Shown here: piece by piece, positions 7,997 to 17,009 of the stretch
Layout: each line of letters starts with the position of its first letter
How positions within the stretch are numbered: position 1 is the stretch's first letter
DNA from: a virus
Taxonomy: Duplodnaviria; Caudoviricetes
Virus record (IMG/VR): IMGVR_UViG_3300032038_000003
Location: 64,001-128,000 of that record
DNA length: 64,000 nt
Direction: 5' to 3' (one strand)
Notes under the pieces: model-generated
The model's database searches: none
Told to the model about the DNA's origin: nothing
What the model saw: the letters and a program-made list of their open reading frames with translations, nothing else
Position numbers and translations under genes: made by a program

Positions 7997-8578
7997 ATGG
8001 ATTGTGAATATGAAGCTACCTGTTTAAACAATGATAAATGTTATCGTTGTATTGAACAGAATCTTTTAAAGCTCAAGACAAAACCATGGAACAAGCCAAA
8101 GCAAACGAAGAACAGTTTAGTTCAAACACACGATACAAAGGCTATGAATGCAAAGAATTCCTGGGAAAATCTTGAACAAGAAGTAGCTGATTCATTAAAC
8201 AATATACCTAATATCCAAGATGCAAGACGTAGTGTACGCTCTGGAGCGTTGTGGTTTGAGAAAGGTGACATTGTTGATGAAATACTCCATCCAGAATGTA
8301 AAGAAAGGACTGGTCGCCAGCTTAAGTCTGGTGACCAGTCTATTTCTATACAGAGATTATGGTTGGAAAAGGCTGCTGATGAATGTAAGGGCAACTCAAA
8401 AACTATGTGTCTTCCGTTTAGATTTAAAGGTGATAATAAGATATATACCATCTTTGAACATAATGATATTGCAGAATTAATTACTTTAATGAAGGCATAT
8501 ATCAGAGATAACGAACTGAAAGCACAACAGATTAAAATTCTGGAGGATAAGCTAAATGAAAGCAACGACACTAAGTAA
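7997..8578 (+). CDS. Hjc-like PD-(D/E)XK nuclease / Holliday junction resolvase
   Basis: E...RSGA...KGDI...ECK motif order; N-terminal Cys cluster. Confidence 0.7.
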   Translation: MDCEYEATCLNNDKCYRCIEQNLLKLKTKPWNKPKQTKNSLVQTHDTKAMNAKNSWENLEQEVADSLNNIPNIQDARRSVRSGALWFEKGDIVDEILHPECKERTGRQLKSGDQSISIQRLWLEKAADECKGNSKTMCLPFRFKGDNKIYTIFEHNDIAELITLMKAYIRDNELKAQQIKILEDKLNESNDTK

Positions 8579-9839
8579 TTACTTTAACGACGTAAAGATA
8601 TTTGATCAGTTTATTACTGAAAAATATCAGTTGCACTTGTATGCTTTTACTTTGGTTGACATCAAAGATAACAAAAAGAAGACAATTAAATATTATATTA
8701 ACAAGCAAGAACTTGCAAAAGCTATTGGTAAATCCAATATCGATATGCGAATTTATGAACAGACACAGAATAAAGGTATTAATGTAGGTTTTCTTGATTA
8801 TATTAATTTCGAAGGAAACTCTTACATTAGTAGTACATTAATATCAAAGTCAACAGAAATACAGAACTTTGGTATTGATATGGAAGAACTTGAAAAAGAT
8901 GTAATGAATGCAACGATTGCAGATGAAATGAATTATGCAAATGCAGTAAGAGACTTTGCAGAATTTAAATTGGCTTGCAATCGTTCCATTTTAACTAATG
9001 CCGATCAGATTAAGTTTAAAATGAAACAGTCTTATCCATTTTTAGACGAAAACTATATCGAGGGCATTATTAATCTTGTTATGGATAGTGCTGTTATTAA
9101 CTTTGAGTTGCCATATAACAAGCTTGAGTTTGTAAATCAGCTTAAGACTGAAATGGTTGATGAAATGTTCGATTTCTTTGAGGATATTATTAAAGATTAT
9201 CGAAAAGATTTCATGCTTAAGAATAATATCACTCCAAAACAGGAATTTAAACAAGCAGAACAGGAAGAGATCAATGAACGTAATAACGAACTTGCAGAAG
9301 AGTTTGAGGCTGCGATAGCAAAGCGTGAACAGACCAAGAATACTTTTGATCCGTCTAAGTTACACATGTTTGTTAATGCAATGGAAAAAGCTTTAGTTGG
9401 TGAAATTAGAAAAGTCAGAAGTGATTTCCCAGCTGGATGGATATTAGAGAGATTTCCACAGGAAGCATGTGCATTACAATATACAGATGTGAATGGCAAC
9501 TGTCTGCGTATTAAAGATGCACAACAGGCTAACCAGATCAAGGCAGATACTTACAATCTTGGCGACGAATTATTAGCCATGTTCTTTTTAAGACATATTG
9601 GCAATCAGCTTGCTACATATGAACATAAAGACGAAAATGGTATCAGGTCTTATATTCCATTCTTGGAAGGCAAGACTCAGCCAGATGGCAGAGTAGAATA
9701 TCCTGGATTGTTAACAAGAAGCAAGTACAATAATATTCTTCGGCAGAATATTGTTTTATTATTTCCAGAACTTACTGCTGATCAAGTTACCATAGCACAC
9801 TTTGATATAGTTCGTAATTATTGTGCGTCAAAGATATAA
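8556..9839 (+). CDS. Hypothetical protein (427 aa)
   Basis: Long ORF, RBS GGAGG, no motif recognised. Confidence 0.7.
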   Translation: MKATTLSNYFNDVKIFDQFITEKYQLHLYAFTLVDIKDNKKKTIKYYINKQELAKAIGKSNIDMRIYEQTQNKGINVGFLDYINFEGNSYISSTLISKSTEIQNFGIDMEELEKDVMNATIADEMNYANAVRDFAEFKLACNRSILTNADQIKFKMKQSYPFLDENYIEGIINLVMDSAVINFELPYNKLEFVNQLKTEMVDEMFDFFEDIIKDYRKDFMLKNNITPKQEFKQAEQEEINERNNELAEEFEAAIAKREQTKNTFDPSKLHMFVNAMEKALVGEIRKVRSDFPAGWILERFPQEACALQYTDVNGNCLRIKDAQQANQIKADTYNLGDELLAMFFLRHIGNQLATYEHKDENGIRSYIPFLEGKTQPDGRVEYPGLLTRSKYNNILRQNIVLLFPELTADQVTIAHFDIVRNYCASKI

Positions 9840-12912: not shown

Positions 12913-14014
12913 GATTAAGAGACAAAAAATAATGGAAAGAGATCGATTCACATATGAAGATAAACTACGTTTTGCTGCTAAATCAGATGACAGATGTTGT
13001 CATTGTGGGAAGAAAGTTCATATTGGATACGGTGCAACTGTAGAACATTTCATTCCATTATCTCAAGGTGGCACTAATCGAGAAATTAATATGGTTATGT
13101 TATGTGAAGATTGTAATAAAAACAAAGGCAGCTTCATATACAGACCAGAAGATTATTTGTTATATCTCAAGAAAGAACACCTTGATAAGCTACAGGGTTA
13201 TTTTGATAGCTACATTAATTCGTTTGATTTTGTTAATCGAGATAACCTATTGGCATGTGATCGTTATAAAGTATGGGTAAATACCATGCCAGAACAAATG
13301 TATTACGCTATGAAATCACGTAAAAGACGCAAAGGACATATTGATATCATGAAAAGGTGTTCTGTACCATTATGGGTAAAAAGAGCCACGTATGATGATG
13401 TGGACAAACTTACAAAATATTATATTAAGTATCTTAAGAAATATCATTGTCTCGATTCAGAAGAATCTGCAAAGATTAATATCCAGTTCTGGATATCGTT
13501 TGGATGTATATATTATATTGAGCGTAATGGAAACATTGAAAGTTTCATTACGGTTACCATTACAAAGGCAAACGGTCATGTATTTCTGAATGATGACAAG
13601 TTAGATTATTATTTTACTGTAAATGTATTTACGTACTATAGTAACGAATATGCTCTTACATTAGGATATAATCTTTCAAGACAGATACCAAGATATTTAT
13701 CTGATGAACAGAATTTGAAACAGATACCAGTAAAATATTGCGTCATCTCTGAAGATACTTTGAGCGGTGAGATTTGTGATGGAGGAGCGATATATAAAGG
13801 AGATAGGTTCATATCATCATTCATGATTTTATATGATGGTGATAAAGATGAATTACCGCCTCTTATAGAAGACAAGGAACTTAAAAAGTTTTTCCAAAGA
13901 TTTGACGAAGTAAAAGAGGAACGATTAAAAGTATGGTTTGCCGTTCATGGTGAAGAGCCTTATGAATGGATGATGCGAGAATTAGAATTAGAAGAAAGTG
14001 AGGATAAGGAATGA
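12902..14014 (+). CDS. HNH endonuclease with a large C-terminal extension (possibly GNAT-like)
   Basis: CCHCG...TVEHFIPLSQGGTN...NMVMLCEDCNKNKG; later VKRATYDDVDKL...YYIERNGNIESFITV. Confidence 0.8.
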   Translation: MEDKIKRQKIMERDRFTYEDKLRFAAKSDDRCCHCGKKVHIGYGATVEHFIPLSQGGTNREINMVMLCEDCNKNKGSFIYRPEDYLLYLKKEHLDKLQGYFDSYINSFDFVNRDNLLACDRYKVWVNTMPEQMYYAMKSRKRRKGHIDIMKRCSVPLWVKRATYDDVDKLTKYYIKYLKKYHCLDSEESAKINIQFWISFGCIYYIERNGNIESFITVTITKANGHVFLNDDKLDYYFTVNVFTYYSNEYALTLGYNLSRQIPRYLSDEQNLKQIPVKYCVISEDTLSGEICDGGAIYKGDRFISSFMILYDGDKDELPPLIEDKELKKFFQRFDEVKEERLKVWFAVHGEEPYEWMMRELELEESEDKE

Positions 14015-14319
14015 GAAGAAAAGTTAAGTATATTCAGCCTGAGTGCCTTAAGAGGTACGAGAAGGCTATCAAGACATCAGATATGTGCATGGGTCTATCC
14101 GCTGCATTCGTCGCAGGGGCAGGAGTCATCATGCTGACGATAGAATATAACACCGGACTCCCAGTCTTAGGGATAGCTCTCCTGGTTATGGGAATCGGTA
14201 CCAGATTGCTCGCTGAGCTGTGGTACAGGAGGAGCAGATCGGATTTAAGAAGAATGCTCAACAGCCATGAATATCATGAGCTAGGACTCGCCATCATGGA
14301 GAAGGAAGGAGATCTATGA
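14011..14319 (+). CDS. Two-TM membrane protein, GC-rich cassette
   Basis: Two hydrophobic helices; visibly higher GC than flanks; ATG lies within repeat 1. Confidence 0.75.
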   Translation: MRRKVKYIQPECLKRYEKAIKTSDMCMGLSAAFVAGAGVIMLTIEYNTGLPVLGIALLVMGIGTRLLAELWYRRSRSDLRRMLNSHEYHELGLAIMEKEGDL

Positions 14320-14486
14320 TTGGATCAGCTGACAACAGACTTTCAGGTCGCTGGATTAAGCACGATGGCGACTTCCATGACAGTAGAGAGTGCTCAGTCT
14401 GCCATGTGTGGATGCCCTGGGATATGAATTATACAAATTATTGCCCTAACTGCGGTGCAAGGATGGAAAGTGAGGGTAAGGAATGA
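14316..14486 (+). CDS. 56-aa zinc-ribbon protein (not in ORF track)
   Basis: MIGSADNRLSGRWIKHDGDFHDSRECSVCHVWMPWDMNYTNYCPNCGARMESEGKE*; ATGA overlaps at both ends. Confidence 0.8.
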   Translation: MIGSADNRLSGRWIKHDGDFHDSRECSVCHVWMPWDMNYTNYCPNCGARMESEGKE

Positions 14487-14665
14487 AACATAAATTAATT
14501 CAATGGTTTAAGCGAAATGCTTGTGAAAAATGTGATTACTATCATGCTAGCAATAATACATGTCAATCGAAAAAGTGCACAACTTGTGGTTGCCATCCGT
14601 ATGTTGATTGGTTTGATAGACATTTTTGCGAGCCATACAAGGCAGAAAGTGAGGATGAGGAATGA
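14483..14665 (+). CDS. Cys-rich small protein
   Basis: Starts in repeat 2, ends AESEDEE in repeat 3. Confidence 0.75.
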   Translation: MKHKLIQWFKRNACEKCDYYHASNNTCQSKKCTTCGCHPYVDWFDRHFCEPYKAESEDEE

Positions 14666-15141
14666 CAAGGGAAGAAGCAATCAATGACCTTAAAGATTTT
14701 ATTGATACTTACATAACAGTCCACGGGGAGGAAGATATCATTGCGGTTTCGCTTGATAATGTTGATGTTGAAGCCTTTGATATGGCAATCAAGGCATTAG
14801 AGCAACAGCCTTGTGAGGATAGTATCAGTAGAGCAGAAGCACAAACAGAAATAGAAATGAATGCTTCAAGATACGCAATTTCAAAAGAACGTGGTGGCAT
14901 GGGGCAAGTTGAATGGAGTGACCAACTTATCAAAGTTAGTGATGCAGTAGACATTATAAGACATTTGCCACCAGCACAGCCAAAGCCAAAGACAGGGCAT
15001 TGGGAAATGTGCGAAGATGCGGACGGAATATACGGAGTGTGTGATATATGCGGTACAGATGCAGATTTTACCCATTATGGAAAAGCATATCCGTATTGCC
15101 CTAACTGCGGTGCAAGGATGGAAAGTGAGGTTAAGGAATGA
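14662..15141 (+). CDS. Mosaic phage protein with C-terminal zinc ribbon
   Basis: MTREEAI...AIKALEQQPCED...CDICG...YCPNCGARMESEVKE. Confidence 0.8.
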   Translation: MTREEAINDLKDFIDTYITVHGEEDIIAVSLDNVDVEAFDMAIKALEQQPCEDSISRAEAQTEIEMNASRYAISKERGGMGQVEWSDQLIKVSDAVDIIRHLPPAQPKPKTGHWEMCEDADGIYGVCDICGTDADFTHYGKAYPYCPNCGARMESEVKE

Positions 15142-15476
15142 AAGTATGGAAGTTTAAAAAGCGTATTGAGATTGACAAAACAATCGGCAATATTCACATA
15201 GAAACATTCCACTATAGTTCTTTTGAAAACAACAAGCCTAAACACTGGACAGAGTTACATTGTTGGTATGAATGTGATTGCGAACATTGTTCGTTATCCT
15301 GGGAAGATAGAAGTTACGAAGGCGAATGTTATGATTGCGGATGTTTCTTGGCTAAAAAAGGACACGATAATGCACCGATGCTGATATGTATGTTACCAAG
15401 ATGGATAAAGAAAATATTGTTGAGGTACAAGATAAAACGTGCGGAGATATGTGCAGAAAGTGAGGATAAGGAATGA
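15138..15476 (+). CDS. Cys-rich hypothetical protein
   Basis: CDCEHC...CYDCGC; ends AESEDKE in repeat 5. Confidence 0.75.
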   Translation: MKVWKFKKRIEIDKTIGNIHIETFHYSSFENNKPKHWTELHCWYECDCEHCSLSWEDRSYEGECYDCGCFLAKKGHDNAPMLICMLPRWIKKILLRYKIKRAEICAESEDKE

Positions 15477-15724
15477 GTAAATCAATTTTAACAATAGATA
15501 CACCAAAAGGATGCGTTTTTTGCCCATTAGCAAAGATGCGTGCGTTTAATGCAATTCCTGTAAAAACAATAATGGGTAGACAGCCCTACATGGGTATTAC
15601 TTGCCCGTTTTGTAATGGTATCAGATACATCTATGATTTGACGGCTGATGAAGTATTGACCTATAAACATAAAGAATGTCCGTTAAGAGAAAGTGAGGAT
15701 ACAGAAGACAATGACAATGTTTGA
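15473..15724 (+). CDS. Cys-rich small protein
   Basis: MSKSILTIDTPKGCVFCPL...CPFC...CPL; passes through the degenerate repeat 6 (ESEDTED). Confidence 0.75.
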   Translation: MSKSILTIDTPKGCVFCPLAKMRAFNAIPVKTIMGRQPYMGITCPFCNGIRYIYDLTADEVLTYKHKECPLRESEDTEDNDNV

Positions 15725-15815
15725 CGCACTATGCGTTGGTGTAACTTTACTAATTGTATTTGGTTTCGGCTATTTCATAGGATATATGAATAGCAATAAT
15801 GGAGGACGCAAATGA
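15711..15815 (+). CDS. 34-aa single-TM microprotein (not in ORF track)
   Basis: MTMFDALCVGVTLLIVFGFGYFIGYMNSNNGGRK*; RBS from repeat 6; ATGA overlap with the next gene. Confidence 0.65.
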   Translation: MTMFDALCVGVTLLIVFGFGYFIGYMNSNNGGRK

Positions 15816-16156
15816 TAGAAATAGATAACTTTAATAGACAGCTGGTTTATAGAAACTCTGTAAGAACAGAAGATGGTTCGATATTACATGTTGCATTTAT
15901 ATTAGATCCACATGATATAGAAATTATTTATCAGTGGAGACAAAGTGAAAATGATAAAGTAGATATCGATGAAAATATTTCTGAATATCTTACAACAGAG
16001 GAGTTAAAACGATATAATAGCCTCGATGAAAAGCAACAGCTAGAGTTCATTACAAAGGCTGCCGATTTGAAAAGACATTTTATGGACAGCGACAACATTG
16101 CATGGCGAGAAGCAACTGAGATGGCTATCAAAGAAATTAAGTTACAATATTTGTAA
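15812..16156 (+). CDS. Hypothetical protein
   Basis: RBS GGAGG; returns to background AT content. Confidence 0.65.
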   Translation: MIEIDNFNRQLVYRNSVRTEDGSILHVAFILDPHDIEIIYQWRQSENDKVDIDENISEYLTTEELKRYNSLDEKQQLEFITKAADLKRHFMDSDNIAWREATEMAIKEIKLQYL

Positions 16157-16437: not shown

Positions 16438-16602
16438 ATGAAAAATCCAAAGAAACTTACTCGTACACAGAAAGAAAAGCTTACTAAGAAACATCTTGAC
16501 GCATCTGAATACGTCATGATTGCGGAAGACGCTTATACTTTTACTGTTCAGAAGAAGAGTAAGATTGGTACAACTGAAGAAAAGATTACTTTTAATAAAT
16601 AA
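16438..16602 (+). CDS. 54-aa basic phage protein (DUF6906-like; not in ORF track)
   Basis: MKNPKKLTRTQKEKLTKKHLDASEYVMIAEDAYTFTVQKKSKIGTTEEKITFNK*. Confidence 0.65.
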   Translation: MKNPKKLTRTQKEKLTKKHLDASEYVMIAEDAYTFTVQKKSKIGTTEEKITFNK

Positions 16603-16645
16603 AATAAGGCGGTGTAGGATAATCCTACACCGCCTATTTGTTTTT
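16601..16645. terminator. Bidirectional terminator at the strand switch
   Basis: Perfect 14-bp inverted repeat AGGCGGTGTAGGAT-A-ATCCTACACCGCCT (16607-16635) flanked by A and T tracts between convergent genes. Confidence 0.9.
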
Positions 16646-17009
16646 ATTCGTCTGCCGCTGGAAGATCTGGAGCTGCTTCAATAGCTTCAGCTTCTTTCTT
16701 AGCAATACTTTCTCTTGTAGCAATAATCTCTTTAAGAGATACTAATGCATCTTCGATTAACTTGCTAAGTTGAGCCTCTGAAACAAAGAATGTAATTACT
16801 GGATAATTCTTCTTGATATATGTATAAGCTTCAGCGAACTTGATACGTCCAGTGTTAGATCCCCAAGCATCTTCTGCTTTTGCAACAGCATAGAGAGCTG
16901 CCTTTTTAAGAATGTCCTGGCGATATCTGATAAGATAAACAGTTATCGCAATAATAATAATACAAACAACGATACATAATACTGGGTTCTGACAAATAAA
17001 ATCTAACAT
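16644..17009 (-). CDS. Putative holin (LL-H-like)
   Basis: N-terminal TM helix then AVAKAEDAWGSNTGRIKFAEA...LIEDAL; start at ATG 17009 after AAGGAGG. Confidence 0.7.
   Translation of the reverse strand: MLDFICQNPVLCIVVCIIIIAITVYLIRYRQDILKKAALYAVAKAEDAWGSNTGRIKFAEAYTYIKKNYPVITFFVSEAQLSKLIEDALVSLKEIIATRESIAKKEAEAIEAAPDLPAADE

Follow-up and report, generated by a model that had tools for sequence, protein, structure and literature searches.

The locus described here raises the question of whether a short repeat at successive gene junctions of a phage serves for the exchange of genes and, if so, by what means. It lies in a stretch of 64,000 nucleotides (hereafter the window) that comprises bases 64,001-128,000 of the IMG/VR record IMGVR_UViG_3300032038_000003, a caudoviricete genome of 210,314 bp and 34% G+C, which is estimated to be complete and probably comes from the rumen. 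A preliminary description of the window had noted a 21-bp repeat (hereafter the 21-mer or linker) joining a row of small genes behind an HNH-domain gene, and had interpreted it as an integron-like cassette system lacking an integrase. The 21-mer is a translationally coupled gene junction, composed of an extended Shine-Dalgarno (SD) sequence, a 7-nucleotide spacer and an overlapping stop/start. We consider it likely that this junction provides the phages of rumen Firmicutes with a common microhomology, at which ordinary short-homology recombination takes place. In these terms it is a community-wide boundary or linker sequence made from a coupled junction.

A block of six genes entered through a crossover at the end of the HNH gene

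A recount bore out the positions of the repeat: there are five full copies, at 13994, 14466, 14645 (with one mismatch), 15121 and 15456, against an expectation of 0.00 in shuffled sequence; together with a site at 15689, which has five mismatches to the 21-mer, they are spaced by 472, 179, 476, 335 and 233 bp. The open reading frames (ORFs) that terminate in the full copies end in ESEDKE, ESEGKE, ESEDEE, ESEVKE and ESEDKE, each with a -4 stop/start overlap, as had been described. The claim that the repeat joins the genes of the block holds for these five junctions but not for that between the 102- and 56-amino acid (aa) genes at 14316, which lacks it. Similarly, its reported absence from other junctions is correct in that the whole 210-kb genome has no further copy at up to four mismatches, but its 10-base core is also the ribosome-binding site (RBS) of three other genes in this genome. 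The 21-mer is purine-rich and asymmetric; no short-range inverted repeat is seen at any copy, nor any promoter-like or terminator-like site at the repeat copies.

Relatives of the locus were reached via protein-cluster look-ups starting from homologues of the HNH protein; scans of IMG/VR with the HNH and DnaX-like proteins returned no close relatives, and cultured GenBank phages gave no match. Four relatives (loci L267, L268, L270 and L271), with 92-97% nucleotide identity to the window over the flanks covered, lack the block and possess a single site, the HNH gene being followed directly by the 34-aa and 114-aa genes. In the alignment the window tracks this empty allele as far as 14006 and once more from 15688, the switch falling within 14 bases that they have in common. 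Since the window rejoins the empty allele from 15688, the supposed degenerate sixth copy is actually the native tail of the HNH gene together with the SD of the next gene; the same native site in the empty relatives rules out a decayed repeat. Relatives at 77-91% identity are likewise empty, and the event was therefore an insertion, of 1,695 bp. Whereas the close relatives of the HNH protein end in ESEDTEDNDNV/I, that of the window ends in ESEDKE, and the old HNH tail is now found on the 83-aa cargo protein, the nearest relative of which has ESEVTE at its end. The block entered through a crossover within the 14 shared bases (13993-14006 / 15688-15701), which exchanged the tails of two proteins; it was through this crossover that the HNH gene gained the repeat as its 3' end, a point on which the preliminary description was right. 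None of the other HNH cluster members listed ends in ESEDKE, which suggests that the event is recent.

The same place has been used more than once. L264, at ~72-75% identity, has a separate insertion there: its HNH gene terminates in a copy with four mismatches and the last of its inserted genes in ESEDT.., giving the same tail geometry as in the window, and a 76%-identical homologue of the window's 112-aa protein is encoded at this site. Common ancestry of the two insertions is ruled out both by this 112-aa protein, which is 96-98% identical to small-phage copies against 76% to that of L264, and by the intermediate relatives being empty. The 34-aa ORF is present in L267 and L271; it is absent from the more distant L260, L263, L272-L274, L276 and L277, and was hence probably inserted earlier at the same SD. 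The 114-aa gene is missing from L265. In this phage family the end of the HNH gene is a recurrent variable site. Towards its C-terminus the HNH protein itself has ~280 aa that are conserved but unannotated (57 homologues), and in the relatives retrieved its gene always follows SpoVG and phrog_4776; given these two features it behaves as a core gene rather than as a homing endonuclease.

The cargo derives from arrays of small phages

The genes of the block match those of small-phage arrays at 76-98% identity; there too they run from repeat to repeat, but with other neighbours. The module of the 102-aa and 56-aa genes is 94-96% identical to DNA of phages with DNA polymerase A and VapE, and the 102-aa protein shows 95-98% aa identity to the products of genes of such phages. 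L297 matches the window at 14234-14486 (96%) and at 15094-15476 (98%, with the 112-aa gene at 98% nucleotide identity); as these matches overlap in a repeat of 48-50 bp, L297 lacks the 60-aa and 159-aa genes exactly there (14487-15141, an indel of 655 bp). The 60-aa gene is shared linker to linker with L287 (85% nucleotide identity) and L025 (77%), and the 83-aa gene with L255 (Butyrivibrio sp. INlla21) and L065. Other loci yielded 18 alignments with the motif at both ends in both partners, at up to 99% identity and with unrelated flanks; for instance, L013, L026 and L074 have ~260 bp in common at 99% between unrelated flanks, and L013 differs from L026 by one gene, linker to linker. The linker originates in this small-phage pool, not in the jumbo phage.

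The block genes had been described as mostly unrelated. Their G+C content ranges over 36-47% against 32-33% in the flanks. However, the 56-aa and 159-aa proteins are related: they share a Zn-ribbon end lying within a 50-bp, 98%-identical repeat. Alignment of relatives, which the preliminary description had proposed, places gene-content breakpoints inside the repeat in three empty/filled pairs. The cassette reading thus stands as regards exchange with breakpoints at the repeat, and fails as regards a dedicated integron-like machine, for which see below.

Spread of the 21-mer across phages and hosts

Exact matches to the 21-mer are present in at least 118 IMG/VR viral contig stretches and in 28 stretches of bacterial assemblies. 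Many of the latter have titles that refer to the rumen or to Lachnospiraceae, Butyrivibrio sp. INlla21 and Eubacterium ruminantium among them; matches in distant taxa may be mis-binned phage contigs. The motif-bearing phage contigs reach 145 kb and have differing replication and recombination genes. Copies cluster on one strand, with 90% at most 3 kb from the seed copy, and in the annotated donor-type loci the arrays of small genes are flanked on one side by replication genes and on the other by VapE, RusA or terminase genes. As counted with our own simple gene caller in loci selected for having the motif, 208 motif junctions, of which 169 have the -4 overlap, join 178 upstream families to 173 downstream families, and 122 proteins from 109 families end in ESEDKE. 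Joining more than 100 unrelated families, the 21-mer is an ordinary translation signal that probably doubles as a shared gene-swapping point. An incomplete literature search found no publication on it.

Two further loci deserve mention. The cultured type strain Eubacterium ruminantium ATCC 17233 (L234; contigs C7 and C15 of assembly G002) has dense clusters of six and eight core copies. In L088 (position 7999) and its relatives L098, L017, L046 and L118 a single linker joins a 74-aa ORF to a 147-aa gene, presumably coding for an SSB to judge from its N-terminus, and this arrangement is stable across the relatives; the motif can evidently become fixed at a core junction in this phage group. The presence of arrays in cultured hosts (the above type strain and Butyrivibrio sp. 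INlla21) opens the mechanism to direct testing.

The ribosome-binding core and the conserved spacer

The first ten bases of the 21-mer pair, with one bulge, with the anti-SD at -12.2 kcal/mol, the anti-SD being what we take to be the canonical Firmicutes sequence and not the host's own; no 16S 3' end was found in four host assemblies. In each host genome this core stands before a start codon 9-18 times, compared with 1-2 times for controls; on the host chromosomes the cores are scattered and, outside phage-like clusters, their spacers varied. As it is a normal host-type RBS that also serves three other phage genes, the core is able to arise independently. The spacer is a different matter: its exact form is found in 34 of 114 non-seed copies in motif-bearing loci against 3 of 119 unselected viral sites that share core and start, pointing to conservation by descent of a string that, judging from these counts, would not arise independently as the core does. 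Conservation therefore reaches past the SD core and start codon, and neither of the two outcomes that the preliminary description had named as fatal to its reading came about. Synonymous positions are biased as well, with Lys encoded by AAG in 73% of cases against a background of 45%, and Ser by AGT and AGC in the ratio 214:58 against ~1:1. Peptide-changing insertions in the spacer are tolerated among the copies, and the conserved entity is a DNA string, not a peptide. A function of ESEDKE as a peptide tag is ruled out by the altered tail of copies with such insertions; the tail is a scar left by recombination, not to be taken for a protein motif.

A model for the spread of the linker, and its alternatives

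We propose the following course of events. A strong host-type SD core, having arisen independently in many genes, would seed 10-14 bp of homology. A crossover in the core, as the empty/filled comparison displays, then swaps everything downstream: the upstream gene gains the donor's spacer and stop/start and comes to end in ESEDKE, while the incoming gene keeps its own SD and coupling. Repeated events could, as the breadth of the motif suggests, snowball one allele through the accessory arrays of unrelated phages, and it was from such an array of small phages that the 210-kb phage, bearing a core at the end of its HNH gene, captured 1,695 bp. Entry by integration of an excised circle and by two crossovers from a linear donor both fit. 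The catalyst would be generic, namely single-strand annealing proteins of co-resident phages, RecA, or template switching during replication. This genome has RecA and lacks matches to tyrosine (PF00589) or serine recombinases, upholding the statement that no site-specific recombinase is visible, as well as to RecT, Erf, Rad52 or Sak4; among 50 motif-bearing phage records RecT occurs in 7, Erf in 10 and a tyrosine integrase in 22 (28 being without it), none of these three tested families being common to all. A much broader version holds that the extended SD of rumen Firmicutes is a universal self-propagating attachment site, that any gene with a tail overlapping it is open to capture and to conversion into the ESEDKE junction, and that the resulting pool of interoperable accessory genes, possibly moving as mini-circles and possibly with counter-defence genes, links temperate and jumbo phages and is selected for exchangeability; this we regard as tentative and rather doubtful.

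Several observations weigh against a special role of the linker in recombination. Within arrays, break rates are 0.58-0.71 at junctions with the motif against 0.52-0.67 at those without; within phage groups breaks are found at 11 of 45 motif junctions against 27 of 63 others, some of the pairs compared being near-duplicate records. Both comparisons use the selected loci and gene calls mentioned above, and the Fisher tests ignore relatedness. Of the 21 clean indel rows among motif-bearing loci, just one lies at the motif, many of the others also being at gene junctions. Moreover, in its known donor-type copies the 102-aa gene is preceded by a junction variant shorter by one base, and 14 bp falls short of the lengths quoted for efficient pairing, which are 31-34 bp for RecA and 23-27 bp for Red-beta (PMC3945230), so that one would expect such exchanges to be infrequent, with selection probably filtering the outcome. 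In comparisons between phage groups, on the other hand, the neighbours of homologous genes differ at 166/166 motif or core junctions and at 41/48 others. A uniquely hot site is ruled out by the array, within-group and clean-indel controls: the whole region shuffles at gene junctions, and the motif is the most widespread allele found rather than a privileged site.

These controls also bear on the alternatives. That motif-free junctions break as often is what one would expect of random (illegitimate) recombination followed by selection, the standard alternative for phage mosaic boundaries (PMC3029335), in which other joints destroy genes or coupling and the repeat is a passenger of past junction events. 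We nevertheless think it unlikely: each of the three empty/filled pairs shows one copy turned into two direct repeats, the signature of a homology-directed crossover, and pairs with different upstream genes match at 17.5 of 20 upstream bases at motif junctions against ~10 elsewhere. The same pairs refute pure convergence of an SD and stop/start overlap in one acquired block with no role in exchange; SD and stop/start function do explain 14 of the 21 bases, and the core is a normal host RBS, but the spacer is not convergent and the block is a mosaic of modules found separately elsewhere, leaving this proposal with next to no probability.

If the 21-mer were kept mainly as an RNA-level regulatory signal in the manner of the start-associated sequences of mycobacteriophages, for instance a protein-binding site or an optimal re-initiation junction, recombination would be a by-product, and the codon bias in Lys and Ser, the position of the copies on one strand and at start codons, and the strong pairing of the core with the canonical anti-SD would all find an explanation. 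However, descent by recombination accounts for the same bias, spacer insertions and many substitutions are tolerated, neighbouring junctions of the same arrays do without the motif, and phages without any common recombinase gene have it in common; this renders such a signal quite unlikely as the main reason for its retention. A dedicated integron-like site-specific system, served in trans by an unrecognised phage or host recombinase or by cleavage by the adjacent HNH protein, might be suspected from the single-gene modules with the repeat as their exact boundary and from the two or three insertions at the HNH end across the phage family. Against it stand the asymmetric site with no attC-like hairpin or promoter, the recombinase distribution given above, a shared length that ranges from 14 to 50 bp, the HNH gene being a fixed resident in every empty relative, and non-motif junctions that break at least as often; such a system is thus very improbable. 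Short-homology recombination at a coupled junction accordingly remains our preferred reading.

Comparison with known systems

Whether mosaic joints of phages are set by conserved linkers or by random joining and selection is an old question, and linkers have usually not been found (PMC3029335). The modular theory postulated boundary or linker sequences (Susskind and Botstein 1978; Clark et al. 2001), which, as far as they are summarised in PMC3029335 and PMC2839356, are short conserved border sequences permitting unrelated genes to be exchanged by homologous recombination with placement and expression kept. The 21-mer conforms to this description in being conserved at the borders of unrelated genes and in having gene-content breakpoints between relatives inside it. 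It differs in lying within coding sequence, where it overwrites the C-terminus of any upstream gene, and in occurring in over 100 gene families across unrelated phages, its entry being visible against empty alleles. In the present case a single linker is common to unrelated phages, and its use is visible in three empty/filled pairs, of which one shows both the recruitment of new genes, with an SD crossover overwriting a tail, and a jumbo phage tapping a small-phage pool. The motif is also usable as a search handle for uncharacterised accessory phage genes. What is distinctive is the breadth across unrelated phages, together with the capture by a jumbo phage lacking an integrase, an event that can be read off by comparison with the empty allele.

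Further counterparts are found in T4-type phages, namely the promoter early stem-loop elements, or PeSLs (Arbiol et al. 2010, PMC2839356; Comeau et al. 2014, PMC4122927), which their authors compared to integrons. They too are repeated expression signals in hypervariable regions, with indels via crossover between copies and no dedicated recombinase. However, PeSLs are intergenic cassettes of promoter and stem-loop restricted to one phage group, and their mini-circles were shown experimentally, whereas the 21-mer, known here from sequence alone, is a translational element of 14-21 bp without promoter or hairpin that spans phage types; no combination of sigma70 promoter and stem-loop terminator is found at its copies. 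The start-associated sequences (SAS) of Cluster K mycobacteriophages and Cluster EF Microbacterium phages are 13 bp long, cluster-specific and proposed to be translation-initiation signals (PMC3203893, PMC7302621). Like the 21-mer, they are asymmetric repeats in a single orientation that occupy the place of the RBS in front of non-structural genes, and their conservation goes further than pairing with 16S rRNA would require. The passages drawn on here give SAS no role in exchange, unlike the 21-mer with its stop/start overlap and its breakpoints. The 21-mer also differs from the 13-bp actinophage consensus and is not confined to one phage cluster.

Capture from prophages to phages by Rad52-like recombinases likewise proceeds by exchange through short homology, but no recent mosaics were seen between temperate and virulent coliphages (PMC3945230); in contrast, the 210-kb phage, which may be virulent or temperate and in which no integrase is detected, holds small-phage DNA at 94-98% identity. 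Integrons, with IntI, attI and attC, are similar in their arrayed single-gene modules with a repeat between; here there is no integrase, palindromic attC or cassette promoter, the modules are joined to one another through their coding sequences, and site-specific exchange is not involved. Finally, the ninR region of lambda is said to have been described by Kroger and Hobom in 1982 as a chain of stop/start-overlapped genes, whose junctions reportedly have only the 4-base overlap in common; the likeness lies in a dispensable array of coupled small genes between replication and late genes.

Features of the block and its surroundings

The features of the locus are collected in Table 1. The six cargo genes yielded only weak Zn-ribbon matches and unnamed clusters.

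Table 1. Coordinates of the block, its crossover zones and the adjoining resident genes in the window.
Feature	Position	Strand	Remarks
HNH-domain gene, 370 aa	12902..14014	+	resident; last codons replaced by linker tail: ESEDKE, formerly ESEDTEDNDNV
Left crossover zone	13993..14006	+	14-bp microhomology including SD core, common to empty site
Linker copy 1	13994..14014	+	5' part from recipient; spacer and stop/start donor-type
Cargo gene 1, 102 aa	14011..14319	+	hydrophobic stretch; 47% G+C
Cargo gene 2, 56 aa	14316..14486	+	Zn-ribbon protein; travels with gene 1
50-bp repeat, copy A	14439..14488	+	Zn-ribbon end and linker copy 2 (14466-14486)
Cargo gene 3, 60 aa	14483..14665	+	Cys-rich
Linker copy 3	14645..14665	+	1 mismatch
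Cargo gene 4, 159 aa	14662..15141	+	modular protein with C-terminal Zn ribbon; no named family
50-bp repeat, copy B	15094..15143	+	encloses linker copy 4 (15121-15141)
Cargo gene 5, 112 aa	15138..15476	+	Cys-rich
Linker copy 5	15456..15476	+	
Cargo gene 6, 83 aa	15473..15724	+	now bears old HNH tail
Right crossover zone	15688..15701	+	'degenerate sixth copy'; recipient's native SD and old HNH tail
34-aa ORF	15711..15815	+	resident; hydrophobic
114-aa gene	15812..16156	+	resident; usual neighbour downstream of HNH gene in relatives

Within the 159-aa gene, the segment 14766-14836, which encodes ALEQQPCEDSISRA, occurs 57 times in 43 loci including the window, at ~85-96% identity and twice in L234; its flanks differ between occurrences, and 9 bases of the junction motif are found inside it. 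The segment has the appearance of another linker, this one intragenic, through which domains are shuffled. Downstream of the block, a strong bidirectional terminator-like hairpin at 16594-16648 ends the operon into which the block entered, at the point where transcription converges and the GC skew flips. A second variable spot lies nearby at 8556-9839, where the gene preceding the DnaX-like gene varies from 208 to 454 aa across relatives (among them L260, L263 and L264).

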